A stretch of DNA of 64,000 bases from an uncultured Lentisphaerota bacterium. Lineage in GTDB: Bacteria; Verrucomicrobiota; Kiritimatiellia; CAIQIC01. The notes beneath the pieces are model-generated. The model saw only the letters and a list, made by a program, of their open reading frames with translations. It ran no database searches and was not told the DNA's origin. Below are positions 745-25,371 of this stretch, one piece after another. Where the stretch lies: the NCBI GenBank assembly GCA_903912445.1, contig CAIWHP010000218.1:36329-100328 (forward strand), written 5' to 3'. Made by a program: the position numbers and the translations under genes. Within the stretch, counting starts at the first letter, position 1. Every line of letters begins with the position of its first letter.

Positions 745-3498
745 ATGAAGATTCCGGGCATCGCAGTGGGCTTGGTGGCGCTGGCGGCAGCGGCGGGCGC
801 GGCGGGCGCGGCGGAGGCGCCGCTGGTGTTGCGGTCGCAGGCCACGCACGGCGGCAGCGCGACGTGGCTCATGCAGCGCGCGGGTGACGCGCACGCCGAG
901 GGCGCGACGATCAGCACGCCGGGCTTCCAGACCGCGGGCTGGCAGAACGCGGTCGTGCCGGGCACGGTGCTCAACAGCCTCGTCAAGAACGGCGTCTACC
1001 CGGAGCCCTACTTCGGCCTCAACAACGCGCACGACTTCAAGAAGGTCCCCGACCTCAAGGACGTAGGCCTGGATTTCTACACCTACTGGTTCCGCACCGA
1101 GTTCGCACTGACGCCGGAGTTCGCCGGCCGGCGCGCCCTGCTGGAGCTCGGCGGCATCAACTACCGCGCCGAGATCTGGCTCAACGGCCAGAAGCTCGGC
1201 GACCTCGCGGGCATGTTTCAGCGTGGCTACTTCGACATCACCGCCCTCGCCAAGCCCAGCGGGCCGAACGCGCTCGCGGTGCGCGTGCGGCCGCCGGATA
1301 CGCCGGGCAACTTCCGTCCCAAGAAGGGTGGCGGCGGCGGCGCGGTCGGCGAGAACAGCAACGGCGGCGACCACACCTACGGCCAGAACGTGACGATGCT
1401 GATGAGCGTCGGCTGGGACTTCACCCTCCGCGACGGCGTGCGCGACCGCAACACCGGCGTCTGGAAAGATGTGAAGGTTTATCCCGTCGGCCCGGTGGCG
1501 CTGCGCGATCCGCAGGTGCGCTCCAAGCTGCCGCTGCCGCTGCTCGCGCCGGCGCGCGAGACCGTGGTGATCGAGGCGGTCAACCTGACCGGCGCGGAGC
1601 AAAAGGGCGTGCTGCGCGGAAAAATCCCCGGCGCGGGCGTGACGCTGGAGCAGCCCGTGACGCTCGCGGCCGGCGAGACGCGCACCCTCACCTTCACGCC
1701 GGAGCAGTTCCCGCAACTGGTCATCGCGCAGCCGCAGCTGTGGTGGCCGCTGAACAAGGGCGCGCAACACCTCTATAACCTCGAGTTGGAGTTCGTCGCT
1801 GCCGATGGCCGGGTGTCCGATCAATCCCGCTCGCGCTTCGGCATCCGCGAGATCACCAGCGACCAGCAGACGCCGGGCAGGGACCGCATCTTCTACGTCA
1901 ACGGCCAGCGCCTGTTCATCCGCGGCAGCAACTGGACCCCGGAGGCGATGTGCCGCGGCTCCGACGCGCGCACCTATGCCGAGCTGCGCTGGACCGCGCA
2001 GGCCGGCGTCAACCTGCTGCGCCAATGGGGCGGCGGCATCACCGAGTCGGACTACTTCTACGACCTGTGCGACGAGCTCGGCATCCTCGTCTGGACGGAA
2101 TTCTGGCTGACCGGCGACACCCTGCTGCCCGCCGAGCCGGAGCTCTATCGCGCGAACTTCGCCGACACGATCAAGCGCATCCGGCGCCATGCCTGCAATG
2201 CCTATTACGTCAGCGCCAACGAGCGCGACGCCAAGGGCGTCATCCCGGTCAAGGACCTGATCGACCAGCTCGACGGCACGACCGGCTGGCAGCCCGGCTC
2301 GGAGACCGACGGCATCCATGACGGCAGCCCCTACTGGACCTGCAACCCGATGTGGTACTACGAGGACAGCGCCTCGGAGCGCGGGAGCCGCATCTACGGT
2401 TTCAACCCGGAATACGGCTGCCCGTGCCTGCCGACGATCGACTGCCTGCGTGAGATGATGGACGAGAAGGACATCTGGCCGGTCAACAAAAACGTCTGGG
2501 ACTACCTCGACGGCGGCGGCTTCCACCGCATGTCCAGCGACTACCTGCGCGCGGTGGAGCAGTACGGCCCGATCCACAGCGCCGAGGAGCTCGCGCTACG
2601 CGCCCAGGCCTTCGGCGGCCTGGCCAACCGCGCGATCTGGGAATGCTGGAGCCGGAACAAGTTCGAGTTCGGCGACCGCTTCGGCACCGGCTTCCTCTTC
2701 TGGTATCACAACAGCCCCGAACCGCAGGTCTGCGGGCGCCTGTGGGATCACTCGCTCGAGCCGACCGCCGCACTCTACTTCACCCAGAAGGCCAACGAGC
2801 CGCGCCACGCGCAGTTCGACTTCCTCAAGAACGGCGTCAGCGTGGTCAACGAGCTGAAGCAGCCGTTCGCCGGCCGCGTCACGCTCCGCGTGCTCGATGG
2901 CGCGCTGAAGGAGATCATGCGGCAGGAGGCGGCCTGCTCCGTCGCCGCCGATGCCGTCACCAACGATGTCATCAAGGTAACGTGGCCCGCGCAGCTGCCG
3001 CCGGTCCAGTTTCTCAAGCTGGAATTGCGCGATGCCGGCGGCGCGCTCGTCAGCGATAATTTCTACTGGCGATCCGACAAGGCCTACCGCGCCGGGCCGC
3101 CCACCGCGACCGCGAAGCCGAAGGCGCCGCCGAAGCCCGGCGCGCCGCTGCGCTCATGGACCGGGCCGCAGTACGAGGGCTTCGAGTCGCTCGCCGCCCT
3201 GCCGCGCGTCGCGGTGGCGGCGCAGTTCGCGAAGAAGCAGGAGAACGGCTGGGCGCGCTACACCGGCACCGTGCGCAACCCCTCGCAGGGCCTGGCGTTC
3301 TTCGTCTGGCTGCGGCTGCAGGACGCCGCCACCGGCAAGCCCGTGCGGCCGGCCTACTTCAACGACAACTTCCTGATCCTGCTCCCCGGCGAGAGCAAGG
3401 CGATCACGATCGAGCACGACGAAGGCGTCACCGGCTCCCAGCCCACCCGGCTGGTCGTGGATGGCTGGAACATCGAGAAGCAGACGCTGAAGTTCTGA
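745..3498 (+). CDS. glycoside hydrolase family 2 protein (beta-mannosidase / exo-glucosaminidase-like), secreted
   Basis: ATG at 745 (aa 98 of track ORF 454..3498) gives signal peptide MKIPGIAVGLVALAAAAGAAGAAEA. GH2 sugar-binding-domain motif YRAEIWLNGQKLG and TIM-barrel motif NGQRLFIRGSNW; ~917 aa. Confidence 0.8.
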   Translation: MKIPGIAVGLVALAAAAGAAGAAEAPLVLRSQATHGGSATWLMQRAGDAHAEGATISTPGFQTAGWQNAVVPGTVLNSLVKNGVYPEPYFGLNNAHDFKKVPDLKDVGLDFYTYWFRTEFALTPEFAGRRALLELGGINYRAEIWLNGQKLGDLAGMFQRGYFDITALAKPSGPNALAVRVRPPDTPGNFRPKKGGGGGAVGENSNGGDHTYGQNVTMLMSVGWDFTLRDGVRDRNTGVWKDVKVYPVGPVALRDPQVRSKLPLPLLAPARETVVIEAVNLTGAEQKGVLRGKIPGAGVTLEQPVTLAAGETRTLTFTPEQFPQLVIAQPQLWWPLNKGAQHLYNLELEFVAADGRVSDQSRSRFGIREITSDQQTPGRDRIFYVNGQRLFIRGSNWTPEAMCRGSDARTYAELRWTAQAGVNLLRQWGGGITESDYFYDLCDELGILVWTEFWLTGDTLLPAEPELYRANFADTIKRIRRHACNAYYVSANERDAKGVIPVKDLIDQLDGTTGWQPGSETDGIHDGSPYWTCNPMWYYEDSASERGSRIYGFNPEYGCPCLPTIDCLREMMDEKDIWPVNKNVWDYLDGGGFHRMSSDYLRAVEQYGPIHSAEELALRAQAFGGLANRAIWECWSRNKFEFGDRFGTGFLFWYHNSPEPQVCGRLWDHSLEPTAALYFTQKANEPRHAQFDFLKNGVSVVNELKQPFAGRVTLRVLDGALKEIMRQEAACSVAADAVTNDVIKVTWPAQLPPVQFLKLELRDAGGALVSDNFYWRSDKAYRAGPPTATAKPKAPPKPGAPLRSWTGPQYEGFESLAALPRVAVAAQFAKKQENGWARYTGTVRNPSQGLAFFVWLRLQDAATGKPVRPAYFNDNFLILLPGESKAITIEHDEGVTGSQPTRLVVDGWNIEKQTLKF

Positions 3499-3509
3499 GC
3501 AGTAGAAAC

Positions 3510-4277
3510 ATGAAATACCTGCTCGCCCCCCTCCTCCTGCTGCTGCTCGCCGGTTGCGCCACCGCGCCCAAGCCGGCATTGCCGGACAATTCCGCCGTCA
3601 TGCCGGTTTCGAAACTGGAACAGGACCACTATGACTGGTTCGGACGGCACGAGGAAATTTTGCGCGTCAAGGACACGGTGCAGCCCGAGGTGGTGTTCAT
3701 CGGCGACTCCATCACGCACCAGTGGGGCGGCACGCCCGCAGCCAAGCCCCATCCGTCACCCGGCGAGAAGGTGCTGAAGACCACGCTGGGAGGTTATCGG
3801 ACGCTGAACCTCGGCTTCGGCTGGGACCGCACGCAGAACGTCCTCTGGCGCATCGAGCACGGCGAACTGGACGGCCTGCAGCCCAAGGCGGTGGTCATCC
3901 ACATCGGCACCAACAACACCAGCCCCGGCCATGCCCGGCCGAACACCGCCGCTGAAATCGCGGAAGGGATCAGCGCGATCTGCGACCGCGTCCACAGCAA
4001 GGTGCCGCACGCCAAGATCATCATCATGGCCATCTTCCCGCGCGAGGCCCAGCCCGAGCATCCGCGCCGGCAAATGATCAACGCCACCAACCGCCTGCTC
4101 CCCGCGGTGGCCCGGGCCCAGCAGGCCGCGTTCGTGGACCTCACGCCGCTGATGCTCGCGCCCGATGGCCAGCTGCCGCGCGAGGTGGCGCGCGACCTCT
4201 GCCATCTGACCGAAAAAGGCTACCAGATCTGGGCCGACGCCTTGCTCCCGATCCTGGCCGGGAGCAAGACCCGCTGA
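3510..4277 (+). CDS. SGNH/GDSL hydrolase family lipoprotein (PAF-acetylhydrolase-like)
   Basis: ATG at 3510 (aa 119 of ORF 3156..4277); lipoprotein signal MKYLLAPLLLLLLAGC; GDS motif FIGDSITHQWGG; C-terminal catalytic-His region ...ARDLCHLTEKGYQIWAD. Stop is 12 bp after the GH2 stop, so probably co-transcribed. Confidence 0.8.
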   Translation: MKYLLAPLLLLLLAGCATAPKPALPDNSAVMPVSKLEQDHYDWFGRHEEILRVKDTVQPEVVFIGDSITHQWGGTPAAKPHPSPGEKVLKTTLGGYRTLNLGFGWDRTQNVLWRIEHGELDGLQPKAVVIHIGTNNTSPGHARPNTAAEIAEGISAICDRVHSKVPHAKIIIMAIFPREAQPEHPRRQMINATNRLLPAVARAQQAAFVDLTPLMLAPDGQLPREVARDLCHLTEKGYQIWADALLPILAGSKTR

Positions 4278-4434
4278 CCGGCCGGGGCTTGCGCTTGGTT
4301 CATCTGGCGGCAGCCCGACAAGCCAGCTCCCGCCTGCGCCGCAGGGACCGCTGCGCTCCACCGCTCTGACGGGCCGACCCCGGAAAGCCGCCCCCTGAGG
4401 CCCTAGAATTTCCCGTGATAACCCTTGTGAAAAA

Positions 4435-4464
4435 CCATTTATTAAGTGCGTGACAGGCGGCGGC
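4435..4464 (+). promoter_or_regulatory. conserved upstream element ccTTTATTAAGTGCGTGAcagg (copy 1), ~100 bp upstream of small-protein gene A
   Basis: Near-identical AT-rich 20-mer occurs again at 5680-5707 upstream of paralogous gene B; AT-rich in a GC-rich background. Confidence 0.35.
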
Positions 4465-4535
4465 TTGTCGGCTGAGATAACCGCCCTGCGGAGCGGGTGT
4501 CCTGCGTGAAGGCCGCCCCGCGCGACAGACAATTT

Positions 4536-4868
4536 ATGAGCGAAAAAGCAGACAGACTTTGCAAGGGCCTCAGCCTCGCCTTGGCGTGCGTAAATGGCGG
4601 GGTGCTGTTCGTAGCGTTCCGGCAATGGCATCAAGTCAGCATCCACAGCAGCGCCAACCACGAAGCGGTGCCGCTGCAAAGCCCGGCTTTCATCCAAGCG
4701 CTCCAGTCCATGCCCTCGCTGCTCCTCGTCCTGTTGCTGGTGACCCTGCTGGCACTCCTCGGCAGCAAAGAATGGCTCCGCCCGTCATGGATTCCCCTCG
4801 GCCTGAATGTGCTCTGGCTGGCCGGCGGCTGCTTCCTGCTGCAGAGCCAGCTTGCGCTCCTGCTGTAA
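4536..4868 (+). CDS. small (110 aa) membrane-associated hypothetical protein, paralog A
   Basis: Internal ATG at aa 14 of track ORF 4497 (GTG) gives MSEKADRLCKGLS..., exactly 110 aa like paralog at 5805..6137. Shared motifs: VNGG/AL, LPLQSP, AWLRP; C-terminal hydrophobic helix. Confidence 0.5.
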   Translation: MSEKADRLCKGLSLALACVNGGVLFVAFRQWHQVSIHSSANHEAVPLQSPAFIQALQSMPSLLLVLLLVTLLALLGSKEWLRPSWIPLGLNVLWLAGGCFLLQSQLALLL

Positions 4869-4906
4869 GACGGGTCGCTGGCACCCCCGCCTGAGTCCCT
4901 CGATAG

Positions 4907-5026
4907 CCCGGGCCCAGCAGGCCGCGCGCGTGGACCTCGCGCCGCAGATGCTCATGCCCGACGGCCAACGGCCGCGCGCCGCGGCGACAGACCTCTGTCA
5001 CCTGACCGGAAAAGACTACCAGTTCG
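4907..5026 (+). pseudogene. degenerate duplicate of the 3' end of the SGNH hydrolase gene (homologous to 4110-4229)
   Basis: ~120 bp at ~80% identity; would encode ARAQQAARVDLAPQMLMPDGQRPRAAATDLCHLTGKDYQ versus ARAQQAAFVDLTPLMLAPDGQLPREVARDLCHLTEKGYQ; no upstream catalytic domain, so a remnant. Confidence 0.5.
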
Positions 5027-5050
5027 CAACAGCGCCGTCTGGTTTCGTTG

Positions 5051-5078
5051 TTGCCGCAGGAGTTGAATCTTCTATAAT
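5051..5078 (+). promoter_or_regulatory. sigma70-like promoter candidate (TTGCCG-16 bp-TATAAT) immediately upstream of the RHH-like regulator gene
   Basis: TTGCCG 5051-5056, TATAAT 5073-5078, only 7 nt before the GTG at 5086 (would make a leaderless transcript); sequence-only prediction. Confidence 0.25.
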
Positions 5079-5085
5079 CGTTTCC

Positions 5086-5565
5086 GTGATTAAAAAGAAT
5101 ACTGCTCGTGGGCGTCCGCCTAAGTTCAACGAGGCCTCCCGCCCTGTCACCGTAACCTTGCCAGAGCGTACGCTCCAACAACTGGCGGCTATTCATGGCG
5201 ACCGGGCGCGCGCCATCGTCAAGGCGGCGGCAACCACAACACGCATACATTCGAGGAAGGCTTCGCCTGTCGCGGTCGTGGAAGCCTTTCACGGGCAGGA
5301 GCTGATTGTGGTCGGACCGAGCCAGAGTCTTCGGCAAATCAAATGGTTGCGCTTGGCTGAGGTCGCCCCGTCACGTTTCTTGCTGGTCATCCCCTCCGGG
5401 ACCATGATTGAAACGCTGGAAGTCGCGGTCAGCGATCTCTTTGACCTCCTGCCGCCATCGGAAACCTACGAGCGCGGCTTGTTGGCGGAATTGCTACGCA
5501 TCTTGCGTTTACGTCGCCGCCAGAAGAATGTGACCAAGGCGGAGATCCTGCTGCTACAGCTTTGA
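5086..5565 (+). CDS. putative ribbon-helix-helix-like regulator, 159 aa, paralog 1
   Basis: GTG at 5086 (aa 94 of ORF 4807..5565). N-terminus GRPPKFNEASRPVTVTLPERTLQQLAAIHGDRARAIVKA resembles CopG/RHH. Paralog at 24117..24602 shares protein sequence with many synonymous third-position changes, so it is under coding constraint. Confidence 0.55.
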   Translation: MIKKNTARGRPPKFNEASRPVTVTLPERTLQQLAAIHGDRARAIVKAAATTTRIHSRKASPVAVVEAFHGQELIVVGPSQSLRQIKWLRLAEVAPSRFLLVIPSGTMIETLEVAVSDLFDLLPPSETYERGLLAELLRILRLRRRQKNVTKAEILLLQL

Positions 5566-5679
5566 ATCGGCCTCTACGGCTGTCCCGGGGCTCACCGCGC
5601 TGCCCGCTTCATCGGCGCAAAAGCAAACTTCAACGACTTGCTGCGCCTTATTTATCCCTTAAATAATCACCCCGAACGG

Positions 5680-5707
5680 CCTTTATTAAGTGCGTGAACG
5701 GAGGCCT
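5680..5707 (+). promoter_or_regulatory. conserved upstream element ccTTTATTAAGTGCGTGAacgg (copy 2), ~120 bp upstream of small-protein gene B
   Basis: Matches element at 4435-4464. Confidence 0.35.
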
Positions 5708-5804
5708 TCTGTCTGCTCTAGTAACGATGTTGTACCTTACGTGTTGGAGTTGCGTGCCAGAGGCTGATTGAACTGCGATGCGATGAGCGAGTGAAACCAA
5801 ACCA

Positions 5805-6137
5805 ATGAATGAGAAGGCAGCCAGGCTTGGTAAACGCGGCAGCAACGCCCTGACGGTGGTGAACGGGGCTTTACTGCTTGCTGCTTTTGGGCCCTTCCAG
5901 CGGCTCCGCTTCCGTTCCGGCGATAGCCCTGCCGCCTTACCGTTGCAGAGCCCTCCGGTCTTCCACTCACGGCTGTCCAGGCACCCACTGCGCGGCGTCG
6001 TGCTGACGGCGATCTTGCGGGCGGTCTTGAGCGGTACAGCCTGGCTCCGACCGCTTTCGAGGCCCTTCGGCGGGCAGCTTCCCTGGCCGGGCGCCGGCAG
6101 GCTCCTGCTGCAGCGCGTGACGGTACTACCGAGGTGA
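5805..6137 (+). CDS. small (110 aa) membrane-associated hypothetical protein, paralog B
   Basis: ATG at 5805; MNEKAARLGKRGSNALTVVNGALLLAAF...LPLQSP...AWLRP; same length and motifs as 4536..4868; stop overlaps the start region of the GT-C gene. Confidence 0.5.
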   Translation: MNEKAARLGKRGSNALTVVNGALLLAAFGPFQRLRFRSGDSPAALPLQSPPVFHSRLSRHPLRGVVLTAILRAVLSGTAWLRPLSRPFGGQLPWPGAGRLLLQRVTVLPR

Positions 6138-6139
6138 GA

Positions 6140-8110
6140 ATGGTCAGCGCGTCACCATCTTATTCGGCGGACGCTGCGCCGTGTCCCCCCGGCCAAGCGC
6201 GCAGGCCCTCTTCACGCCCGACACAACCCTTGGCGCGAGGGCACGCCTGGCTGCTCTACGGCTTACTGCCGCTGCTCGCCTTCGCGGCGACAGGGTGGCT
6301 CTACCGCCATGTCTTCCACTGCGCGCCGATTACCACCGACGAGAACAGCTATATCTTTCAGGCTTACAACTTCCTCGCCGGCGTGATCGCCCGGCCCTGC
6401 CCGCCGTCGCCCGAAAGTTTCTTTCACGCCATGATCATTTGTGACGACCGTGTCGGCTGGCTTTCCCGCTATCCACCCGGCCACGCGCTTTGGTTGTTGC
6501 CCGGCTGCCTGCTGCATCAGCCGCACCTCATGGTGGCGCTGGCAGCCGCCCTGTCCGTGGGGCTCATGGCTCGCGTCGGCGCATTATTCGGGGGCCAGGT
6601 CGCTTGGCTCGCCGCACTTTTGCTGCTGCTCTCCCCTTTCTTTCTCTTCACGCATGGCACCTTGTTGGGCCACACCAGCGGACTGCTGGCCACGCTGCTC
6701 TTGCTGTATGGTTTCATGCGGTGGCAAGGGACGGGCACCGTTCTTTTCGCAGCGCTGGCCGGCCTGGGCTGGAGCTGGCTCTATCTGAATCGCACCTATA
6801 CGGCCGCACTGCTGGTCCCGCCGTTGGCCCTCTACAGCCTGATCACGCTCTTTCGCCAGCGGCACAACAAAACCGCATGGCTCGGCATGCTGCTGTTTGC
6901 CGGCACGGCCGCGACAGGTGTGGCGTTGGTTCTCTTCTACAACTATCTGGCCCTCGGTGATGCTTGGACCATGACCTATTCGTATTTCCGGCCTTCGGAG
7001 ACACTGGGGTTTGGCGTCAAACAAATTGATCATGCCCGTGTCGTGCATACGCTATCCACAGGCTTGCGCATGATGTGGGGCAACCTGCGCCTCTACGATC
7101 AGTGGCTGTTTGGCTTCACGGGCTCGCTCGTGGTGGCCGCGGCAGGGGCCCTTATCGGTTGGCGCAAGCAATGGAGTCCCTTGTTGTTGATGGCGCCGGT
7201 CATGGTCTGGGCCGGGTATGTCCTCTTTTGGTATCACGGCCCGCACGAAGTCGGCCCGGCCTATTATACGGAAACGTTGCCGTTCGTGGTTTTGGCGACC
7301 GCTTTGGGGTTGGCGCGCATACTCGACTTTTTGCGCGCAAGGCACTGGGCCTGGCAGTGCGGCTTGCTTGTGCTCTGCGGCGGATGGCTCACCAGTGATG
7401 CGCGTTTCCTCAGGCAGCAATCCGCCACGGTCAGCACCTTGTGCCAGCCGCTCGGGACCTTGCGCGAGTTTGTGCAGCAGGCGCCATCGAATTCCGTCAT
7501 TGTGACCACCGAGGCCACGCCCTTCACCAGCCGCCGCTATGGCCCTTTGGTCTTCAATCCACAGGGACTCGCGAGTCAGCCCCTGATCGTCCACGCCACA
7601 GGCGCTCAGGATGCCAGTGTGATCCCTAGGATGTTCCCCCACCACCAGGCCTTCACGCTGACCTCAACGGGCGGGCAACATCAACTGGTGCCGCTAATTC
7701 CGGCCGCTTTCAATCTTCCACTCTCCCTCGCAGCGCTGCGCCGCCATACCGGCCAGCGCCTCGGCGGGGACGGGCATCAGCCCGTGGTTCTCACGGCACA
7801 GCAAGCGCGAGACAAACCCGAGTTTCTCGCTTTTGGCCACACCGTGTTGCTGCCACCCGGACGCTTCGCTGCCGAGTTTGATTTTATCATCACCAATGCC
7901 AGCGCAAACGAGACGGTGCTGACCGTGGATATCGCCCGGACCGGCGGCCGTGAAAGCGTGGTGCGGCAAGCCTGCGCGGCCAACACCAGCGCCCCCCTTA
8001 TCGTGACGTTTGCGGTGACCCATTTCACCACGGTAGAACCGCGTGTGTTTTACCAAGGGAGAGGCGATGTCACCCTGCGCGGCATACGTCTGTATGAGCT
8101 TTCGCCGTAG
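6140..8110 (+). CDS. GT-C fold membrane glycosyltransferase (ArnT/PMT-like, GT39/GT83 type) with C-terminal soluble beta-sandwich-like domain
   Basis: ATG at 6140 three bp after upstream stop, preceded by gaggtg. ~11 predicted TM helices in the first 430 aa with loop motifs typical of polyprenyl-phosphate-sugar-dependent GT-C enzymes; ~230 aa C-terminal non-membrane domain. Confidence 0.7.
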   Translation: MVSASPSYSADAAPCPPGQARRPSSRPTQPLARGHAWLLYGLLPLLAFAATGWLYRHVFHCAPITTDENSYIFQAYNFLAGVIARPCPPSPESFFHAMIICDDRVGWLSRYPPGHALWLLPGCLLHQPHLMVALAAALSVGLMARVGALFGGQVAWLAALLLLLSPFFLFTHGTLLGHTSGLLATLLLLYGFMRWQGTGTVLFAALAGLGWSWLYLNRTYTAALLVPPLALYSLITLFRQRHNKTAWLGMLLFAGTAATGVALVLFYNYLALGDAWTMTYSYFRPSETLGFGVKQIDHARVVHTLSTGLRMMWGNLRLYDQWLFGFTGSLVVAAAGALIGWRKQWSPLLLMAPVMVWAGYVLFWYHGPHEVGPAYYTETLPFVVLATALGLARILDFLRARHWAWQCGLLVLCGGWLTSDARFLRQQSATVSTLCQPLGTLREFVQQAPSNSVIVTTEATPFTSRRYGPLVFNPQGLASQPLIVHATGAQDASVIPRMFPHHQAFTLTSTGGQHQLVPLIPAAFNLPLSLAALRRHTGQRLGGDGHQPVVLTAQQARDKPEFLAFGHTVLLPPGRFAAEFDFIITNASANETVLTVDIARTGGRESVVRQACAANTSAPLIVTFAVTHFTTVEPRVFYQGRGDVTLRGIRLYELSP

Positions 8111-8140
8111 CGCCGAGGTAAACCCCAGACTCCATACCAT

Positions 8141-8914
8141 GTGCTTTTCTTCTCCCAGCTTCAGCCTCCAACCCGGATGTCATACATGAACACACCCATG
8201 CAGCCCAGCCTCGAGGGACAGCCCGCACAGCGGGTGGACGTGGTCGTCCCCGTGCTGAACGAGCGGGAGATGCTCCCCCGTTTCCTCAGCCGTATTCAGG
8301 CCCTCGACTTGCCTCTAAACCTGATTTTCGTGGATAACGGTTCCACGGACGGGACCTTGGAGTTTCTGGCCTTGCAACAGGGCGCGAAGGCGGACATCCA
8401 GATCATTGCGCACGGGCGCAATATGGGCTACGGGCGCTCCTTGGCGGACGGGTTACGGGCCTCAACCGCCGCGCGGGTCATCATCATTGACGCCGACTGT
8501 GAATATCCTCCCGAGGCCCTTCCGGACCTATTGGCTGCGCTCGAGCTTTCCCCGATGGTGTATGCAAGCCGTTTCCGAGGCGCCAAGCGCATCGCCATGG
8601 CCCCCTTTCGCCGGTGGGGTAACCGCGGGCTGACAGGCTTTTTTAATTTGCTCTATGGTCAGCACCTTACCGACCTGTACACCGGCATGAAGGCGCTACG
8701 TCGAACCGCCTTCGAAGGTCTGACCTTTACCCGGAACGGTTTTGAACATGTGATGGAGTTGTCGGCCAAAGTGGCCCGGCGCGGGGTGCGGATCGGCGAG
8801 GTGCCGGTGGCCTATGCCCCACGCCAGACCGGCCGTTCCAAAATGCGGCATATCCCCGAATTCCTCAAGGCCGTGTACTGCCTGCTTTACTACCGGAGGA
8901 GCCGCCATGAATGA
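8141..8914 (+). CDS. GT2 family glycosyltransferase, polyprenyl-phosphate sugar synthase-like (DPM synthase / ArnC-like)
   Basis: QRVDVVVPVLNEREMLPRFLSRIQALDLPLNLIFVDNGSTDGT is a GT-A/GT2 N-terminal signature; ~245 aa, no TM, like DPM1/ArnC. True start uncertain (M at 8141, 8177, 8186 or 8198). Confidence 0.75.
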   Translation: MLFFSQLQPPTRMSYMNTPMQPSLEGQPAQRVDVVVPVLNEREMLPRFLSRIQALDLPLNLIFVDNGSTDGTLEFLALQQGAKADIQIIAHGRNMGYGRSLADGLRASTAARVIIIDADCEYPPEALPDLLAALELSPMVYASRFRGAKRIAMAPFRRWGNRGLTGFFNLLYGQHLTDLYTGMKALRRTAFEGLTFTRNGFEHVMELSAKVARRGVRIGEVPVAYAPRQTGRSKMRHIPEFLKAVYCLLYYRRSRHE

Positions 8915-10349
8915 ACGCGTCAGTTTGATTCCTGCCGCCGGTAAAGGTACCCGGGCTTACCCCTATACCAAGAACATCCCCAAAGGACTGCTCAAGATTG
9001 CCGGCAAACCGCTGCTGGAACATCTGGTGATATTGCAGAGGGACCAGTTGCGGATTCAGCACATCTATATGGTGGTGGGAACCACCGGGCAGCAGATCCG
9101 CGACTATTTCGGGGACGGGAGCCGCTGGGGCGTCCGAATTGATTATCTGCAAAACGATCGCGTCGATCTGGGCTTGGCCTATTCCGTCTACTTGGGCGCG
9201 GCGGTCATCCGGGAGCCGTTCCTCTTGATGCTCTCGGACGAATATTATCAGGACACGAACCTCGCCCTGCTGTCAGAGGTTACCCTGCAACAAGACGAAT
9301 TGGGCTGCTGCAGCTTAATCGAAACGCAGGACTGGGATCGCATCCGCCGAAACTACACGGTGACCTTGGAGGATGGTCGCGTCACCCGCCTGCTGGAAAA
9401 ACCCCGGGAACGTCAAGGCGACCTGCTGGGAACCGGGACGTTTCTGCTGTCCCCCAAGATTTTTGACTACCTCAAGCGGGCTTTCTCAGAGCCCTCTGCC
9501 CGGCCCGACTTTATCGGCATGGTGGACCAAGCCGTCCGCACCGGGGAGATCCTCCGCCCGCTGATGCTCACCGGCCAGTACCTCAACATCAACGACGTGG
9601 ACAGCCTGAACTGGGCCAATTTTTTAGGCCGCAGCCGCGATTTACCCAAGGCCAGCCTCAGTGTCATCGTCCAATCCTTTGGGATTGAGGAAGGGCTTTC
9701 CCGCGTCGTGGCGGAGTTCCACGCCTTGCCCCGCGTCACGGAAATCCTGGTGGTGGTGCCGGCCGGAGCTGTCCGTCCCGCATGGATCGATGGCCTTGAA
9801 AAAGCACGCTGGGTGGAGGCCCCGGCAGGGGTTAAGGAATACGGGGGCTTGATTGCCTACGGTCTTGATCAGGCCCGGGGAGAGATTCTTACGGTGGCAG
9901 AAGGAGCCTATTCCTTTTTCCCCGGAGATCTTTCCAAGTTGCTGGCCTATTTGGCCGACGCCGACCTGGTCTTGGGCACACGGACCACGCGCCAGTTGAT
10001 CCAGCAGGGCTCCCGCATGAACGGCGTGGTACGCTTGGCCCATATTTTTCTGGCTATACTGATCGAAATCCTCTGGCTCGACCACCGCATCCGTTTGACC
10101 GATGTGGGTTGTACTTTTCGCGCCATCTGGCGGCACAGCTACTTGGACATCCGGGACCGCTTGAAAAGCGCCGGCCCAGAATATGTCTTGGAAATGGATA
10201 TCGAGACGTTGCGGGCAAGGAAACGCTTGATCGAAGTCCCGGTCAGTTTCCTGCATACGAACGAAGCTCTGGCCGAACGGCATCAGCATGCAAGTGTGTT
10301 TTTCAGGCTGTTGTGGACGATTATCTCTAAACGCTTGGGGCGTGACTAG
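8907..10349 (+). CDS. bifunctional sugar-1-phosphate nucleotidyltransferase (N-term) / GT2 glycosyltransferase (C-term)
   Basis: ATG at 8907 (aa 32 of ORF 8814). N-terminus MNERVSLIPAAGKGTRAYPYTKNIPKGLLKIAGKPLLEH is an NTP-transferase (RmlA/GlmU-like) signature. C-terminal half SVIVQSFGIEEGL...VVVPAGA... is a GT2-like fold. Start overlaps upstream gene by 8 nt. Confidence 0.7.
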   Translation: MNERVSLIPAAGKGTRAYPYTKNIPKGLLKIAGKPLLEHLVILQRDQLRIQHIYMVVGTTGQQIRDYFGDGSRWGVRIDYLQNDRVDLGLAYSVYLGAAVIREPFLLMLSDEYYQDTNLALLSEVTLQQDELGCCSLIETQDWDRIRRNYTVTLEDGRVTRLLEKPRERQGDLLGTGTFLLSPKIFDYLKRAFSEPSARPDFIGMVDQAVRTGEILRPLMLTGQYLNINDVDSLNWANFLGRSRDLPKASLSVIVQSFGIEEGLSRVVAEFHALPRVTEILVVVPAGAVRPAWIDGLEKARWVEAPAGVKEYGGLIAYGLDQARGEILTVAEGAYSFFPGDLSKLLAYLADADLVLGTRTTRQLIQQGSRMNGVVRLAHIFLAILIEILWLDHRIRLTDVGCTFRAIWRHSYLDIRDRLKSAGPEYVLEMDIETLRARKRLIEVPVSFLHTNEALAERHQHASVFFRLLWTIISKRLGRD

Positions 10350-10376
10350 CCCCGACCTAGTTTGCCCGTGTATATC

Positions 10377-10742
10377 ATGAAAAATATTGGCAAGAAACAA
10401 GACGGGATGCGCAGGATGAATAAGCCCACAAGCGACAGGCGCGTTAAAGGCAGGTCAACTTTCGCAAGAAAGCCGGCCTCCAAAAGGCAAGGCGCGAACA
10501 CGTTTGCCCTTCTCTATAACCGGCTGAAAAAAAATATCGTGGCTGTTGAACACGACCGGAGGAATTTTGGCGACAAGGTTTTTATTCTCCGTTTTTGGCG
10601 CAAACTCGCGGTGTTATTAAAAGATGTTCAGCAGCTTCGTACGCTGGCGAAGACAGCCGACGAAAGAAAACAGATAAAGACGATGAGGAATTCTATCGAT
10701 CTTCGAATGACAGCTGCCCTCTTATCCATCACAGCTTTTTGA
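10377..10742 (+). CDS. hypothetical small basic protein in low-GC island
   Basis: ATG at aa 6 of TTG-initiated track ORF 10362; region 10360-10750 is markedly AT-richer than surroundings; no recognisable domain; could be non-coding. Confidence 0.3.
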   Translation: MKNIGKKQDGMRRMNKPTSDRRVKGRSTFARKPASKRQGANTFALLYNRLKKNIVAVEHDRRNFGDKVFILRFWRKLAVLLKDVQQLRTLAKTADERKQIKTMRNSIDLRMTAALLSITAF

Positions 10743-10930
10743 GGCCGGAGCGACAGGGCTGCATCCTTGCAGGCGCGCCCGCTCAACCGGGATGGCGTTG
10801 GACAATCACGACAAGGCAGGCGGCACAGGGCAGGAGCAGCACAAGCCCCCGCCGCCGCGACACTAGCCAGATGAAAACAGGCCCAGCATCACGCACCCGT
10901 CGAGGCGCGGGCTTTTCATGCGTATAAAAG

Positions 10931-11743
10931 TCAGGGTCGCTTGCGCAGGTAGGGTGCAGCCAACAGGCTGAACTCGGGAATGCCCCCGCCGCCCCACTGT
11001 ATACACAGGGCAGCCGAGCGGCTGTGCCGGGCATAATGTTCCACCCGCAGCGGATGCATCCCCGCGGTCAGCGGGACCTTCACCGTCCGCAGACTGTTGG
11101 TCCACGGCTGATCATGCCAGTTGTCGAGCACGCAGCGCTCATCGAGATACAGCCGCAGGCCCTCCTGGCTCTGGCAGGTGAAGCTGTACTCGGCGGTCTG
11201 CGGCGCCTGCAGCCAGCCGGTCCAGCGGGAGGAGAAATCGCCCTTGCCAAACCACCACGGCAGCGGGTGCTCATCCGGTTCGGCCAGCAAAGCCATCGCG
11301 TAGCTATACCAAGCGACCTCGGTAAGGTTGGCCTCCCGATAATAGGTGATCAACAGACCTTCAGGCTGTGACCACCGCCGGAACTCGCCGACGGCCATGG
11401 TGACGAACAGCGCTCCGGCAATGGCCAGCAGATAGGAGGCCGCCCGCCAGCGTGCCCGCCGGCGCAGCGCAGGCGGACAGCGGGCGTAGAGTGCGGCCGC
11501 CAGCTGCTCGGCATATCGGCGCAGCGCCCGCCCCTGTATGTCCAAGGCATCCGGCGTCACCGCGGCCACGTGGGCGGGGGGCGGCGCGAGTTGCAGGCTG
11601 GCGGCCACCTGCACCAACCGTGTGTGCGCCTGCGCCAGCGCGCTCTGCCCGGCGGCCAGTCCGGTCGTCGTCAGTGCGCGGGACAGGTCACGGGCCGCGC
11701 CGTGAATTTTTCCCCGCAAATCCCGATAGAGTTCTGCATCCAT
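10931..11743 (-). CDS. single-pass membrane protein with C-terminal PA14 domain
   Basis: ATG at 11743 (aa 31 of ORF ..11833). TM helix ASYLLAIAGALFVTMAV, then PA14-like domain (GWLQAPQTAEYSFTCQSQEGLRLYLDERCVLDNW ... WGGGGIPEFSLLAAPYLRKRP). Strongly similar to the C-terminal 190 aa of ORF 22088..24112. Confidence 0.7.
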   Translation of the reverse strand: MDAELYRDLRGKIHGAARDLSRALTTTGLAAGQSALAQAHTRLVQVAASLQLAPPPAHVAAVTPDALDIQGRALRRYAEQLAAALYARCPPALRRRARWRAASYLLAIAGALFVTMAVGEFRRWSQPEGLLITYYREANLTEVAWYSYAMALLAEPDEHPLPWWFGKGDFSSRWTGWLQAPQTAEYSFTCQSQEGLRLYLDERCVLDNWHDQPWTNSLRTVKVPLTAGMHPLRVEHYARHSRSAALCIQWGGGGIPEFSLLAAPYLRKRP

Positions 11744-11756
11744 GGTATCGGAGTGC

Positions 11757-12863
11757 CTATAAGAGTGAACGCAGCCAGGACCAGGCGTCCCAAGCATTCT
11801 GGCCCGGATGCACCACCTGCCCCAGCCATACATAGTAGGTGGGCGAAAACGAGGCGATGAGGGCGATGAGCATCAACACGCGCTCGAACTGCGCCCGCAG
11901 CCGCGGCCCCGCCTCGTCCGCCTTTTGCAGCGCGTGGACCAGGCCGTGCCACGCGGGGGCCCAGGCGAGCAGCGCAAACACGCGGGTGGTATCGAGACAG
12001 AAAAAAGTGATGCCGTAGAAGAGGGCCAGCAGGCCGAGCAGGCACCACGCATAACCGCGGTCGAGACGCAGCAGGATGGCCACGCTGCCGGCGAGCGCAA
12101 ACCAGCCCATATTCTGCAGGGAAAAGAGGGCCACCGGCAGGTGCTCCAGGTTGTACTTGATCCAATAGAGTAAATTGCGCTCACCGACAAATTCGGCGCG
12201 CGAAACCACCTCGATGCTGTTGATGTGCAGGAACACCCGGACGGCGAGCCAGCCGGCGAGGACGCCGAGCGTGGCCAGCGCCACATGGAGCCAGGTCACG
12301 CCGCTGTCGCGCGCCCGCCAGCGCAGCAGCCACAGGCCGGGCACGGCAAACATGACGATGGGATGGTTATAGGAGCCCAAGGCGGCGAGCAGGAACACCA
12401 CCCACCCCTGCCGGACGTACAGCATCAAGGCGAGCACCAGGAAGGTGATCGCGTCCGGCATCCCGATCCACGAGAGCAAGACCATGGTCAGCGGGCTGGC
12501 CAACAGGAGTGCCAGCAGGAGCAGGGCCCAGAGCGCCCCATAGCGCCGGCGGGCCGCGCGCACGAGGTAGAGAAAGCCGGCCAGGATGACGGAGAAACAC
12601 AGGAGACCAAAGGGTGCCGGCGCCTGCCAGCCGGTCAGATGCGCCAGCACGGGCAGCAGCGGAGATTCTTGGAAATAATTTTCGCGGTGGATGTCGGTAC
12701 GCTGCGCATAGGGATTCTTGGCCAGCTCGCGATAAAATTCCCGCGGCACCACGCCGAGACCACAGTAGAGGATGGTGGCCACCACCAGCAGCGCCAGCAC
12801 CAGGTAAAAATGCTGCCGCACACAGCGGCGCACCCACGCCTCAAGTTGATCAAAGATGGTCAT
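11757..12863 (-). CDS. polytopic integral membrane protein (9-10 TM), unknown family
   Basis: ATG at 12863 (aa 12 of ORF ..12896); hydrophobic throughout; stop 14 bp before the PA14 gene start, so the two are likely co-transcribed. Confidence 0.6.
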   Translation of the reverse strand: MTIFDQLEAWVRRCVRQHFYLVLALLVVATILYCGLGVVPREFYRELAKNPYAQRTDIHRENYFQESPLLPVLAHLTGWQAPAPFGLLCFSVILAGFLYLVRAARRRYGALWALLLLALLLASPLTMVLLSWIGMPDAITFLVLALMLYVRQGWVVFLLAALGSYNHPIVMFAVPGLWLLRWRARDSGVTWLHVALATLGVLAGWLAVRVFLHINSIEVVSRAEFVGERNLLYWIKYNLEHLPVALFSLQNMGWFALAGSVAILLRLDRGYAWCLLGLLALFYGITFFCLDTTRVFALLAWAPAWHGLVHALQKADEAGPRLRAQFERVLMLIALIASFSPTYYVWLGQVVHPGQNAWDAWSWLRSLL

Positions 12864-13135
12864 CGCCCGGTCACCAGCCGACACGCCCCGGCCCAACCAT
12901 GCGCCGCGGAGCGGGAAGCATACGACGCATGGAGTTAAGCAGGATGCGTACCGGGCGTCACGCGCTTAATTATGCCGTCCCGGATGCCTTATTACGGAGA
13001 AACCGGCGGCGCGTGGGCCGGCGGGCGGCCTGCCGGCGCCGAGGCGCGCCGCGGCCTGTCAGTTTCATGGGCAGGCTTTCCTATTGACAACGCAATTTAT
13101 TTATTTACAGTTGCCGCCCGTACTTGGATGACAAT

Positions 13136-22087: not shown

Positions 22088-24112
22088 TCACGGACGCTTG
22101 CGCAGATAAGGCGCGGCGAGCAGGGTGTTCTCGGGAATGCCGCCGCCGCACCAACGGACACGCAGGGCGCCAGACTGGTCGTGCGAGAAGTGCTCCACCT
22201 TCAACGGATGCAGGCCGGCCGTGAGATGGACCTTGGCGGCGGTGCCGCTGGTGCTGAACCGCTGCCGGCGCCAGTTATCCAATACGCACTGGCCGTCGAG
22301 ATAGAAGCGGATACCGTCTGAGCTTTGGCTGTAGAAGATGTAGTCCGCCTCGCGCGGCACGTCCAGGTAGCCGGTCCAGCACGACGAGAAGCCGCCGGGC
22401 AGGATCCACCAGATCGGCGGATCCTCTTCAAAATCGCGGACCAGATCGTGCTCGACACCGCGCCAGGCCGGGAATTTCAGGCTGACATCCTGATAGTACG
22501 TCACGCTCAAGCCCTCCGGCCGGATCCAGCGGTTCACCTCGCCCGCCTCCAACAGAGACCAAAACAGGATGCCAACCACGAGGGCCCAGCGGACCGTGCG
22601 GCGCCGGTCGGCGAGCGTGACGGCGACCGACGGCGTTTCCAGGAACAGCTGGAGTGGCGCGGGCGTGGCAGCCCGCCGCCGCAGCCGCCGCCAGAGCAGC
22701 AGCCCCACCAGCGTCACCAGGACCAGCAGCGAGAACAGCAGGGTGACGTGGACGGAGCGCAGATAGGCGGGATCGTCCAGCGTGAGGATGTTGGGGAGGA
22801 GCAGATCCGGCGCACCGCAGATAAAGTTGCGCTCAATGGACTCCATCCGCCATAAAGCCCAGTGATAGCGGAGTTGGAGCAACAGCGCGGCCACGGCGGC
22901 CAACATACCGAAGCCAAGCCAGCGGATCTGAATGAAGCACTGATGCAGCCGCTGAAAACGCGCACAGGCCATCACCACCAGAAACACCAGCGGCAGGACC
23001 AGGAACCGCGAGGGCACGCGCTCGGTGTTCGGGACGGCGGCCGGCAGGAACGCAATGAATTGCTGATAGAAGTCGCCCAAGGAGAGGGCCAGCAGGATCA
23101 ACAAGGGCAGATAAAGGCCGCGAAAACGGGCGGCCGCGAGTTCCGGCCGCGCACTGAAGGCGAACCAGATGCCGAAGATGAAAAGGAACGCGACACCGAC
23201 CAGGCCTATGTACAGGTCGTATTCCCAGGGGAACAGCGCCTTCTTGAACAAGGCGGTCGAGTCCAGGCGGGCAAGGATGTCGGCGAGCGAGCCGAAGCCG
23301 CTCTCGAACTCCGCCGCCGAAAGTTTGCCGAGCGTCAGCGCGGCCGGCGCGAGGCGGAAGACCGACAACAGGCCGGTCAACGCCGCCGCCAGCAAGGCCG
23401 TCCAGCGGGCGCGGCTGCTGCAGAGGAACAGCAGGCCCAGAAAAATCATGCACAGCGCATAGAGATGAATCGAGCCCTGCAGCAGCACGAACAGGTTGAC
23501 CAGGGCGATCCGGACCCCGGTCTCGAAAACCGGCGCGCGGCGGTCGAGCGCGTCGAGGACGAAAGCGGCCAGCATGGCCAGGTAAAAATAGCCGTTCCAT
23601 TTGTGGCCCGCGGCGACGTGCGCAATGATGTGCCCGTTGAGATTGAACAGCAGGACCAAAACAAGGAACGCGACCGGCGACAGGTCGAGCCGGCGCCGCA
23701 ACATCAAACACCCCCAGAAACCGATGGCAAAATGCAGCAGGACATTGACGACCACGAACTGCTTCAGGGTCAGGAAGGCGAGCAGCGGGGCCTGCGGCGC
23801 GAGCCAGTAGAGCGCTTCCGGCACGGCCATGAACCGCTGTGTCGGCCGCAGCGGCTGCACCGGGGTCGACACATGATAGGGCGCCTGCTGGGTCTGCCAA
23901 GCCTGCTGGATGATGTGGTAGTACTGCTGCTCGACCTTCCAATCAATCGCATGGAAGAACGGCTCCGCCTCCTGGCACTTGAAGAACGAACACCAGAAGC
24001 CGCCGCCCAGCAACAGGACGAGCGCCAGGAAGAGCATCTGCATCCGCTTAAAGCGGCTGGCGGAAGGCGGACCAAACGCAAAGGTTAGAAAGTTGTCCAC
24101 CCAGGCGGGCAT
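22088..24112 (-). CDS. polytopic membrane protein fused to C-terminal PA14 domain (fused counterpart of the 12863..10931 gene pair)
   Basis: ATG at 24112 (aa 36 of GTG ORF ..24217); ~480 aa polytopic region, TM anchor, then PA14-like domain ending ...WCGGGIPENTLLAAPYLRKRP, near-identical to the ending of 10931..11743. Confidence 0.7.
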   Translation of the reverse strand: MPAWVDNFLTFAFGPPSASRFKRMQMLFLALVLLLGGGFWCSFFKCQEAEPFFHAIDWKVEQQYYHIIQQAWQTQQAPYHVSTPVQPLRPTQRFMAVPEALYWLAPQAPLLAFLTLKQFVVVNVLLHFAIGFWGCLMLRRRLDLSPVAFLVLVLLFNLNGHIIAHVAAGHKWNGYFYLAMLAAFVLDALDRRAPVFETGVRIALVNLFVLLQGSIHLYALCMIFLGLLFLCSSRARWTALLAAALTGLLSVFRLAPAALTLGKLSAAEFESGFGSLADILARLDSTALFKKALFPWEYDLYIGLVGVAFLFIFGIWFAFSARPELAAARFRGLYLPLLILLALSLGDFYQQFIAFLPAAVPNTERVPSRFLVLPLVFLVVMACARFQRLHQCFIQIRWLGFGMLAAVAALLLQLRYHWALWRMESIERNFICGAPDLLLPNILTLDDPAYLRSVHVTLLFSLLVLVTLVGLLLWRRLRRRAATPAPLQLFLETPSVAVTLADRRRTVRWALVVGILFWSLLEAGEVNRWIRPEGLSVTYYQDVSLKFPAWRGVEHDLVRDFEEDPPIWWILPGGFSSCWTGYLDVPREADYIFYSQSSDGIRFYLDGQCVLDNWRRQRFSTSGTAAKVHLTAGLHPLKVEHFSHDQSGALRVRWCGGGIPENTLLAAPYLRKRP

Positions 24113-24116
24113 GGCC

Positions 24117-24602
24117 TTACTTTTTTCCGGTGCGGATGAGCAGAATTTCCGCCTTGGAGACGTCCTGCTGCCGGCGGCGCTGGCGCAGCAAGCGGTGCAG
24201 GGCGCCCAATAATTCACGCTCGTATTTCTCGTCCGGCATCAACCGGTCCAAGAGGTCGGAAACGGCCACCTCCAACTGCTCGATCGCCGTGCCCGTCGGG
24301 ATCACCAGCAGATGCCGCGCCGGCGCGACCTCACCGAGCCGCAGCCACGGGATTTCCTGCAGCCGCCGGCTGGGCCCGACGATGATCACCGCTTCGTTGG
24401 GCCGCACCTCGACCACATCCACCAGGGGCCGTTCTTCCGCCTTAAAGCCGATGGCCAAGGTGGTCGCCTTGACGATGGCGCGTGCACGGTCGCCATGCAG
24501 GGCCGCGAGCTGCTGCAGGATGCGTTCCGGCAGCGTCACCGTGATGGGGCGGCGCGCCTCTTCGAATTTGGGTGGCCGCCCGCTGAGTTTACGTCGTTCC
24601 AT
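24117..24602 (-). CDS. putative ribbon-helix-helix-like regulator, 161 aa, paralog 2
   Basis: ATG at 24602 (aa 9 of ORF ..24626); MERRKLSGRPPKFEEARRPITVTLPERILQQLAALHGDRARAIVKA...; paralog of 5086..5565; stop (24117-24119) is 4 nt from the PA14 gene start, so the two are likely co-transcribed. Confidence 0.55.
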   Translation of the reverse strand: MERRKLSGRPPKFEEARRPITVTLPERILQQLAALHGDRARAIVKATTLAIGFKAEERPLVDVVEVRPNEAVIIVGPSRRLQEIPWLRLGEVAPARHLLVIPTGTAIEQLEVAVSDLLDRLMPDEKYERELLGALHRLLRQRRRQQDVSKAEILLIRTGKK

Positions 24603-24798
24603 AGTTTGTTCCTGCGGGGAAAACACCTTTGCGAAGTATTTTTACGTCATAATGCGCCATGTGACAACACCTTTTTCGCGCCACAGGCACCGGTGAATAG
24701 GACCGCCCGCCCAGAGGCGCGCGCCCTTGGAAACACTCCCGTCGGCTGGCCACAGTTCGGGACAGGCCAGCCTGTGTTGGACGGAGCAGCCGTGTGCG

Positions 24799-25371
24799 TC
24801 AATGCGCGATGTTTTGCATCCGACCGATCATCGCAAAAATCACGACGCCATAGACAATCATGAAGATGACCGTGAAGATGAACATCATGATGTAGCTCCA
24901 GCCCAGGGCCTTGAAGGCGCTACGCTGCTTCTCCAGCGCCGGCAGCATCGCCGGATCGATGCTGGGCAGCGTGTTGAACAGGTTCTTCGCGCCGATCAGA
25001 CCGACGCCACCGATGATCATCGGAATGCCATAGATCAGTCCGATGCAGGACAGGCAGGCGAACGCGCCACCGACGATGTGCATGACGCCGACAAAGGTCA
25101 TCCAGCCACCCAGCCCCTGCGGCACCGGCACGCCGCCTGTGACGGTGGCCGCTGCGACCGACACGCCCGCCGCGGAAGCCACGGGAGCGGCGGCGGACGG
25201 GGGTTGCAGCGCGGCTACGCTGCTCGCCGGCGCCCAGTTCGCCATGCCTTCGCTCCACACCAGCGTGGCCGCCGAAATGTGTCCGCTGGCGAGCAGTTGC
25301 TGCAGTTCGCTTTCCGGCACCGGCCCTTTTTTCTCCTGGCCATCTGCCGAGTAGAACCAATTCTTTTCCAT
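24799..25371 (-). CDS. DUF4339 (GYF-like) domain membrane protein
   Basis: ATG at 25371 (aa 24 of ORF ..25440); N-terminus MEKNWFYSADGQEKKGPVPESELQQLLASGHISAATLVWSEGMANWAPA matches the DUF4339 pattern; C-terminal half has 4 TM helices. Confidence 0.6.
   Translation of the reverse strand: MEKNWFYSADGQEKKGPVPESELQQLLASGHISAATLVWSEGMANWAPASSVAALQPPSAAAPVASAAGVSVAAATVTGGVPVPQGLGGWMTFVGVMHIVGGAFACLSCIGLIYGIPMIIGGVGLIGAKNLFNTLPSIDPAMLPALEKQRSAFKALGWSYIMMFIFTVIFMIVYGVVIFAMIGRMQNIAH

Follow-up and report, generated by a model that had tools for sequence, protein, structure and literature searches.

The methionine repressor MetJ of E. coli is a small ribbon-helix-helix (RHH) repressor whose β-ribbon reads an ACGT-centred palindrome, the met box (AGACGTCT); adjacent dimers bind repeated boxes cooperatively, and the protein autoregulates. 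AmrZ of Pseudomonas, an RHH regulator of the alginate and Psl polysaccharide genes, requires its N-terminal arm for DNA binding, carries a C-terminal oligomerisation domain and controls exopolysaccharide and envelope genes in addition to its own promoter. We analysed a 64-kb stretch of DNA (the window) in which a sequence-only reading had pointed out two paralogous genes, here called copy 1 and copy 2, for putative RHH-like regulators that flank an island. MetJ provides a precedent for an ACGT-centred palindrome read by an RHH ribbon, which is the arrangement that we propose for the family to which these two proteins belong. The positions of the genes and elements discussed below are listed in Table 1.

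Table 1. Genes and candidate regulatory elements (positions are those of the window, unless a locus of a related genome is named)
Feature	Position	Strand	Description
Copy 1	5086-5565	+	GTG start, 159 aa; family HMM 242 bits
Copy 2	24117-24602	-	ATG start, 161 aa; family HMM 264 bits
PA14-membrane gene	22088-24112	-	674-aa polytopic membrane protein with C-terminal PA14 (E 3.7e-15)
Candidate operator	24637-24654 (core 24639-24652)		cATTATGACGTAAAAATa; PWM 17.8 bits, only strong site in the window
Copy 2 promoter-like box	24638-24667	-	TTGTCA-18-AAAAAT; consensus match only, 1 found vs 0.3 expected
Copy 1 promoter-like region	5041-5078	+	GGTTTCGTTGTTGCC (last bases are the -35 TTGCCG), 16-nt spacer, TATAAT
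Tandem duplication	4091-6137	+	Unit 1, 4091-4868; unit 2, 4887-6137
Bipartite element	5651-5699	+	Weak operator-like site, then TTTATTAAGTGCGTGA; between copy 1 and the 110-aa ORF/GT-C-like operon
Further bipartite copies in the window	4407-4455; 12956-13004	+; -	
Bipartite instances in relatives	L004 8496-8544; L006 8170-8218, 9586-9634; L007 12591-12639; L010 10608-10656; L011 10591-10639, 13558-13606		

Two anciently diverged paralogues of an undescribed family

Both open reading frames that had been proposed as paralogues exist, and their products align without gaps over 150 aa (63% identity, E = 2e-56, BLASTP). A search with the family HMM recovered exactly these two members in the window. 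Among the 158 aligned codons, 34 were identical, 61 differed synonymously and 63 non-synonymously, and the identity at third positions was 38%. The estimated dN was ~0.3 and dS was saturated (>2), giving dN/dS values from 0.08 (NG86) to 0.13 (LWL85). These values indicate purifying selection and an old duplication, in agreement with the selection suggested by the sequence-only reading and distant from the ratio near 1 that it had named as contrary evidence. The age of the duplication is also apparent from the separate orthologues of each copy: copy 1 is 99% identical to P0071 and 78% identical to P0060, and the closest match of copy 2 is P0001 (93%). Copy 1 and copy 2 are genuine paralogues that separated long ago, and both belong to one unnamed bacterial family. 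They differ in base composition, copy 1 having the lower GC (58.8% versus 65.4%) and GC3 (0.68 versus 0.84) and lying below both copy 2 and the average of the window (GC 65.4%).

In copy 1, the GRPPKF arm at the N-terminus is followed by an RHH-like segment and the C-terminal domain, and all invariant residues of the family alignment are retained. Its reading frame is nested in a longer ORF (4807-5565), the long upstream extension of which derives from a duplicated GDSL 3΄-end remnant described below. The copy 2 frame can be extended to an alternative GTG start at 24626; the ATG, which has AGGA 8 nt upstream, was favoured because the homologues are ~161 aa long and start with MERRK or MEKRK.

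The family comprises 712 matches among 90%-identity clusters, all of them annotated as hypothetical and none with a Pfam domain, and 561 clusters at 50% identity; essentially all members are 140-260 aa long and share a single architecture. All genome matches came from MAGs, which represent more than 10 phyla: members were found in Lentisphaerae, Verrucomicrobia, Kiritimatiellia, Victivallales and Phycisphaerae, and also in δ and γ proteobacteria, Bdellovibrionota, Acidobacteriota, Acidimicrobiia, Rokubacteria and others. In these MAG loci, heuristics were used to set the start codons and the neighbouring ORFs. Several genomes, and even single loci, contain two or three copies. The closest genome is the uncultured Lentisphaerae MAG LJ_bin-4696, whose neighbouring genes are 83-93% identical to those of the window. 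Scans of both copies against Pfam, NCBIfam and PADLOC returned nothing meaningful, the sole match being JetB (E = 0.002, 15 bits), and searches of PDB sequences with a single protein or with the full profile gave no match. A literature search found no description of the family. The view that the two copies belong to an undescribed family of small RHH-like local regulators is largely right.

Predicted structure of the family proteins

We predicted the structure of copy 2 with AlphaFold from an alignment of 137 sequences (model m811895f3d68b, pLDDT 86.8); this model superseded an earlier one based on 39 sequences (pLDDT 68). In the model, residues 1-25 are extended and are followed by helices at residues 26-35 and 39-51, with pLDDT values of 87-96 for residues 11-50. 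The N-terminal strand (residues 18-25) is unpaired, the prediction being that of a monomer. The N-terminal sequence is near-invariant in the family (GRPPKF-x5-RP(I/V)TVTLPE-x-L-x2-L-x5-DRArAIvKa) and shows the alternating strand pattern, helix A, short loop and helix-B start that are typical of RHH proteins. Within it, GRP(P/R)KF is nearly invariant and preceded by basic residues, and the canonical AT-hook core R-G-R-P is only partly matched.

The N-terminal part was compared with known RHH proteins in several ways. When the N-terminal profile was searched against the PDB, the best match was CopG (E = 0.36), aligned strand on strand and in register (KRLTITLSESVLENLEKM against RPVTVTLPERTLQQLAAI), and NikR was also listed as a weak match in register (E = 3.4). 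Comparisons by hhalign with single CopG and NikR sequences each yielded a probability of 52% (P = 1.5e-4). The corresponding comparison with a NikR N-terminal profile yielded 3.5% (P = 0.012), a weak result obtained with a profile that was too narrow, since the 120 proteins listed for it are all close NikR orthologues and only three distinct rows were left after N-terminal trimming. Matches to the PHROG category 'transcriptional repressor' were found in 48 of the 137 members (best E = 2.5e-4) and matches to 'Arc-like repressor' in 10 of 137 (best E = 2.7e-3); they cover residues ~6-54, and, like the CopG match, each of them is below significance for a single protein. The Pfam RHH models matched 0 of 39 members, even at E values up to 10. 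Fold searches with the model returned nothing, an RHH unit in a monomer model being invisible to such searches. The RHH motif proposed from the sequence is partly supported: it agrees with the predicted secondary structure, the sequence pattern and the weak in-register matches, but no curated RHH model reached its threshold. We regard the N-terminus as RHH-like; the direct homology signal is weak but consistent.

The C-terminal part is predicted to consist of β-hairpins (residues 61-75 and 88-100) and long helices (residues 107-120 and 126-145). For this domain of ~100 aa, with four strands and two helices, no solved structural analogue was found, and the ACT-like nickel-binding tetramerisation domain of the NikR family (Pfam NikR_C) was not detected. 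The earlier description of the domain as unrecognised still holds, and the model makes it a candidate new fold.

A conserved palindrome next to family genes

A recurring AT-rich, ACGT-centred motif was first spotted in the 60 nt upstream of ~85 family genes. The refined matrix (rTTwTwACGTwrAAAy) contains a 14-bp palindrome, TTwTwACGTwrAAA, the flanks of which are TTTT/AAAA tracts. In a two-fold cross-validation, the site was found in 56-60% of the held-out family upstream regions, compared with 1-6% of dinucleotide shuffles and 4-7% of the regions upstream of other long ORFs from the same loci; the PWM, though cross-validated, was trained on data of the kind that it scored. At a threshold of at least 13 bits, 50 of 87 family genes had a site in the 200 nt upstream and 12 of 87 had one in the 300 nt downstream, before the next gene; 57 of 87 had the palindrome upstream or downstream, and the other 30, including copy 1, had no site within these distances.

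The positions of the sites cluster at -9 to -28 and at -35 to -60 relative to the start codon, and 21 of 30 site-to-site spacings were 30-32 bp, about three helical turns. Of 83 loci, 32 contained a strict form of the pattern (TTWYWACGTWRWAA), which was nearly always located at the family gene. Loci with the motif were from Lentisphaerae, Verrucomicrobia, Kiritimatiellia, Planctomycetes, δ and γ proteobacteria, Bdellovibrionota, Acidobacteriota, Acidimicrobiia and Rokubacteria. For example, the 20-kb locus L006 has only two sites of at least 10 bits, each located before one of its two family genes, and in L007 a 31-bp palindrome pair heads an operon that consists of a 155-aa gene, a GT2 gene, a 305-aa gene, an epimerase gene, two family genes and the PA14-membrane gene. 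Palindrome pairs were also seen after a family gene or PA14 gene and before the next gene, in L009 (2166-2300, where four sites form two pairs of 31-32 bp), L075 (10524-10570), L078 (10593-10640) and L086 (5185-5233), which hints at control of neighbouring promoters besides self-regulation.

Because the site tracks the family gene through phyla that have different promoters and global regulators, the simplest reading of this co-occurrence is that the family protein binds the adjacent palindrome, i.e. that it is autoregulatory. A conserved palindrome beside family genes across phyla also lends in silico support to the regulatory, DNA-binding role that had been suggested for the two proteins. 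One may ask whether the palindrome is instead bound by another factor, or is itself a promoter element, with the family protein doing something else. The right half-site (TAnAAT-like) does resemble a -10 hexamer, the 30 family genes out of 87 without a nearby site would be readily accommodated, and it is through co-occurrence that the site has been assigned to the family protein. We nevertheless consider this explanation unlikely, since a promoter element or a global regulator would not be expected to follow one gene through more than 10 phyla, the palindromic site and the pair spacing of 30-32 bp match no sigma-factor geometry, and in the 20-kb loci hardly any site lies away from the flanks of family genes.

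Copy 2 and the PA14-membrane gene

The candidate operator of copy 2 is centred 43 nt upstream of its ATG. The pattern TTWTNACGTNRAAA occurred once in the 64 kb, compared with 0.01 expected occurrences, and orthologues of copy 2 carry the site at the same offset (-41 to -48). In the window, the site overlaps the spacer and the -10 hexamer of the promoter-like box of copy 2, which is the only such match there; this arrangement points to autorepression of copy 2.

A gap of 4 nt separates the TAA of copy 2 (24119-24117) from the ATG (24112) of the PA14-membrane gene. Homologues of the PA14-membrane protein (54-93% identity) adjoin a family gene in L006, L007, L032, L084 and L086/L088; the adjacency held in 3 of 3 metagenome loci that were retrieved via the PA14 protein and included its 5΄ flank. 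Since this adjacency was observed in every relative that has the gene, copy 2 and the PA14-membrane gene form a conserved module, and the tight linkage noted in the sequence-only reading is confirmed by both the 4-nt gap and the comparison of genomes. The PA14-membrane gene is the probable second gene of a copy 2 operon, and the position and conservation of the site suggest that copy 2 very probably autoregulates this two-gene operon.

Several features were noted around the module. The gene directly upstream of copy 2 (24799-25440, minus strand) encodes a GYF_2 and DUF5362 membrane protein and is also the neighbour in LJ_bin-4696; in that genome, an inserted block with an extra family copy, an epimerase gene and genes for proteins of 539 aa and 680 aa separates it from the copy 2 orthologue. 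The island encodes a second PA14 protein (300 aa, in the stretch 10931-12896, minus strand), and its PA14 part is related to that of the PA14-membrane protein. Homologues of the pair of 379-aa and 300-aa proteins directly follow the PA14-membrane gene in L007, and in the window the pair is a separate divergent unit.

Whether the family is always adjacent to PA14 or GT-C genes had been raised as a check of the idea that the two copies are dedicated regulators of these systems. This is not the case. Among the 119 candidate downstream ORFs across the family, 73 Pfam families were matched, with GDSL hydrolases (6 ORFs), methyltransferases (6), radical SAM enzymes (3) and PA14 proteins (3) among them, and individual settings are as different as a 2-hydroxyacid dehydrogenase in a Bdellovibrionota MAG and a long operon with deoxysugar, GT-C and DUF2079 genes. 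In the PVC clade, envelope-glycan genes (GDSL, PMT_2, DUF2079, GT2 and PA14) recur near family genes. Dedication to the PA14 gene accordingly describes the orthologue group of copy 2, which adjoins the PA14-membrane gene in every genome examined, but not the family as a whole.

The same neighbourhoods bear on the possibility that the proteins are not regulators, but small cytoplasmic partners or chaperones of adjacent envelope or glycan enzymes, for instance a subunit of the PA14-membrane protein. Such a role would suit the short stop-to-start gaps before long downstream membrane ORFs, which are 3-4 nt in the window, L006, L007, L028 and L072 and 1 nt in L019, as well as the conserved adjacency of the PA14 gene and a C-terminal domain without a recognised fold. 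The downstream genes are, however, mutually unrelated (methyltransferases, radical SAM enzymes, GDSL hydrolases, 2-hydroxyacid dehydrogenase and others), and a partner function leaves both the palindrome at the family gene and the repressor-like N-terminus unexplained; we therefore rate it as quite unlikely.

Copy 1 and its rearranged surroundings

The promoter scan located the box TTGCCG-16-TATAAT at 5051-5078, 7 nt before the GTG of copy 1 (1 found versus 0.4 expected), where it had been described from the sequence. When copy 1 was aligned with its orthologues in L010, L011 and L012, the elements TTTCG, TTGCC, TAAT and GTG were invariant and in the same register; the four sequences share GRTTTCG-x3-TTGCC, a T(A/G)TAAT hexamer and then the invariant GTG 7-8 nt further on. 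The layout of a promoter followed almost directly by the start codon, which had been taken as possibly leaderless, is thus kept in four genomes, and from this conservation transcription of copy 1 appears to start at or next to its GTG. No canonical palindrome of at least 9 bits was found near copy 1 or its orthologues in L010, L011 and L012.

Copy 1 lies in a tandem duplication, as had been noticed before: three collinear blocks match, namely 4091-4229 and 4887-5025 (81%), 4438-4461 and 5682-5705 (87.5%), and 4671-4847 and 5940-6116 (66%). Both units contain a GDSL 3΄ end or what remains of one, together with a conserved element and a 110-aa ORF; only unit 2 has copy 1, and tblastn detected no remnant of a family gene in unit 1. 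The remnant directly upstream of copy 1 (4887-5060) is a duplicated 3΄-terminal fragment of the GDSL hydrolase gene at 3156-4277. The two 110-aa ORFs (4536-4868 and 5805-6137) are paralogous (40% identity, E = 1e-19) and had no match in Pfam or in any fetched locus; the first looks membrane-like, and the second has lost much of the hydrophobic stretch and may be decaying.

LJ_bin-4696, the closest relative, lacks the block of GT-C-like, GT2 and nucleotidyltransferase genes that follows copy 1 (6134-10349). The block lies in a stretch of lower GC (0.55-0.60); in a GC profile of positions 5000-11000, the values were 0.55-0.64, compared with ~0.67 in the flanks. The lower GC and the absence from LJ_bin-4696 indicate that the neighbourhood of copy 1 was recently rearranged, and suggest that the block is a recent insertion or replacement beside copy 1. 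The GT-C-like 658-aa gene and the nucleotidyltransferase gene had no counterpart in any fetched locus, and the GT2 gene of the block had only distant matches (at most 30% identity) in other loci.

Reduced GC, rearrangement and absence from the closest relative, as seen for the segment with copy 1, might be expected of a mobile element, in which case the family proteins could be RHH-type antitoxins or plasmid/partition-type proteins (CopG, ParD or ParG-like); their RHH-like N-terminus and the multiple copies in several genomes could be read in the same way. This explanation seems very unlikely, given that no toxin family recurred among the 73 Pfam families of downstream genes, that no ParA, relaxase or integrase family recurred among the neighbours, that PADLOC gave no meaningful match, and that a conserved C-terminal domain of 100 aa and a chromosomal glycan-gene context do not fit such proteins.

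A bipartite element in the glycan island

Between copy 1 and the downstream operon, we found an element of ~49 nt that is composed of a TTTCnCCGTAATAAGG-like part followed by TTTATTAAGTGCGTGAC, at a distance of 31 bp from centre to centre. Ten instances were identified, three in the window and seven in L004, L006, L007, L010 and L011 (Table 1), and the 16-mer is an exact match at 4438 and 5682 of the window. When scored with the family PWM, the distal half ranked in the top 0.01-0.2% of positions in 9 of the 10 instances. In the window, the copies stand before each of the 110-aa ORFs and before the 379-aa/PA14 operon; the second 110-aa ORF leads into the GT-C-like operon. The same arrangement follows the copy 1 orthologues in L010 and L011 and a family gene in L004. 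Overall, at least five related genomes have the element ahead of several transcription units of the glycan island. The element may act as a promoter specific to the clade, as an operator (degenerate, or of a paralogue-specific, copy 1 type), or in both ways.

A weak PWM match at 12987-13004 was considered as a separate operator and rejected, being the distal half of a bipartite element; it is less conserved in the closest relative. No Rfam family matched anywhere in the window.

Proposed mechanism

Taking these results together, we consider it probable that copy 1 and copy 2 are autoregulated local transcription regulators that combine an RHH-like unit with a novel C-terminal domain and act via the ACGT palindrome. 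The position of the sites relative to the consensus promoter matches suggests that the regulation is probably repression. In the RHH-like unit, the strand RP(I/V)TVTLP would be followed by helix A, a short loop and helix B, which would begin at the invariant D-R-A. The paired strands of a dimer would enter the major groove over the ACGT centre of the 14-bp palindrome, and the GRP arms may extend to the A/T tracts on either side; the combination of these tracts with a GRP arm suggests AT-hook-like contacts in the minor groove. Two dimers, probably joined via their C-terminal domains, would fill palindromes that are 30-32 bp apart and hence on one face of the helix. Copy 2 would most likely repress the operon of copy 2 and the PA14-membrane gene through the site over its own promoter-like -10. 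Copy 1 belongs to a different orthologue group, and one candidate for its target is the bipartite element, which follows copy 1 and precedes three transcription units of the island. The analysis shows the paralogy, the purifying selection, the breadth of the family, the predicted fold elements and the conserved site with its spacing and position; from these we infer that the proteins bind DNA, repress and form tetramers, and likewise what the GRP arm does and whether there is a ligand.

A more elaborate joint reading would have the C-terminal new fold serve both for tetramerisation and as a small-molecule sensor, the paralogues act as a network that switches the glycan island, and GRPPKF act as an AT-hook. 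The ligand could then be an intermediate of envelope-glycan or nucleotide-sugar metabolism, copy 1 and copy 2 would possibly be linked by mixed oligomers or by graded affinity for canonical and degenerate sites, and the degenerate sites would include the 31-bp bipartite element that is found ahead of three operons of the island. The surface-glycan island would be horizontally exchangeable and switched on and off, and the proteins would represent a bacterial AT-hook fused to an RHH unit. As a whole, this extended reading is doubtful.

Local autoregulation through the palindrome, the reading that we prefer, provides a family that is present in many uncultured phyla and has no name, Pfam model or structure with a function that can be tested, a model of its binding site and a target operon. 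The sequence, the 30-32 bp pairing and the position of the predicted operator can be used for regulon annotation in MAGs of the PVC clade, Acidobacteriota, Acidimicrobiia and proteobacteria. At this locus, the reading assigns a specific local regulator to a membrane protein that bears PA14 and belongs to a surface-glycan island.

Comparison with known systems

Each of the described RHH systems shares a part of the proposed arrangement. CopG, Arc and Mnt, together with the phage Arc-like repressors, bind their own promoters, as is proposed for the family, and CopG was the best PDB match; these proteins are 45-85 aa long and have no C-terminal domain, unlike the family members, and no plasmid or phage context was seen at the family loci. 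AmrZ gave no match in any search, and its operator and C-terminal domain are unrelated to those of the family. NikR, with its N-terminal RHH unit, has the architecture proposed for the family, in which the C-terminal domain that follows could join two dimers at separated half-operators. MetJ has no detectable sequence similarity to the family, and its boxes are 8 bp long and abutting, whereas the family sites are 14 bp long, flanked by A/T tracts and paired at 30-32 bp; in addition, the family proteins have the extra C-terminal domain of 100 aa and the GRPPKF arm, and are not known to use a co-repressor. What is new here is a concrete operator model for the family, the members of which, compared with these systems, are probably new regulators of a well-known kind, with no new kind of mechanism and nothing exotic.
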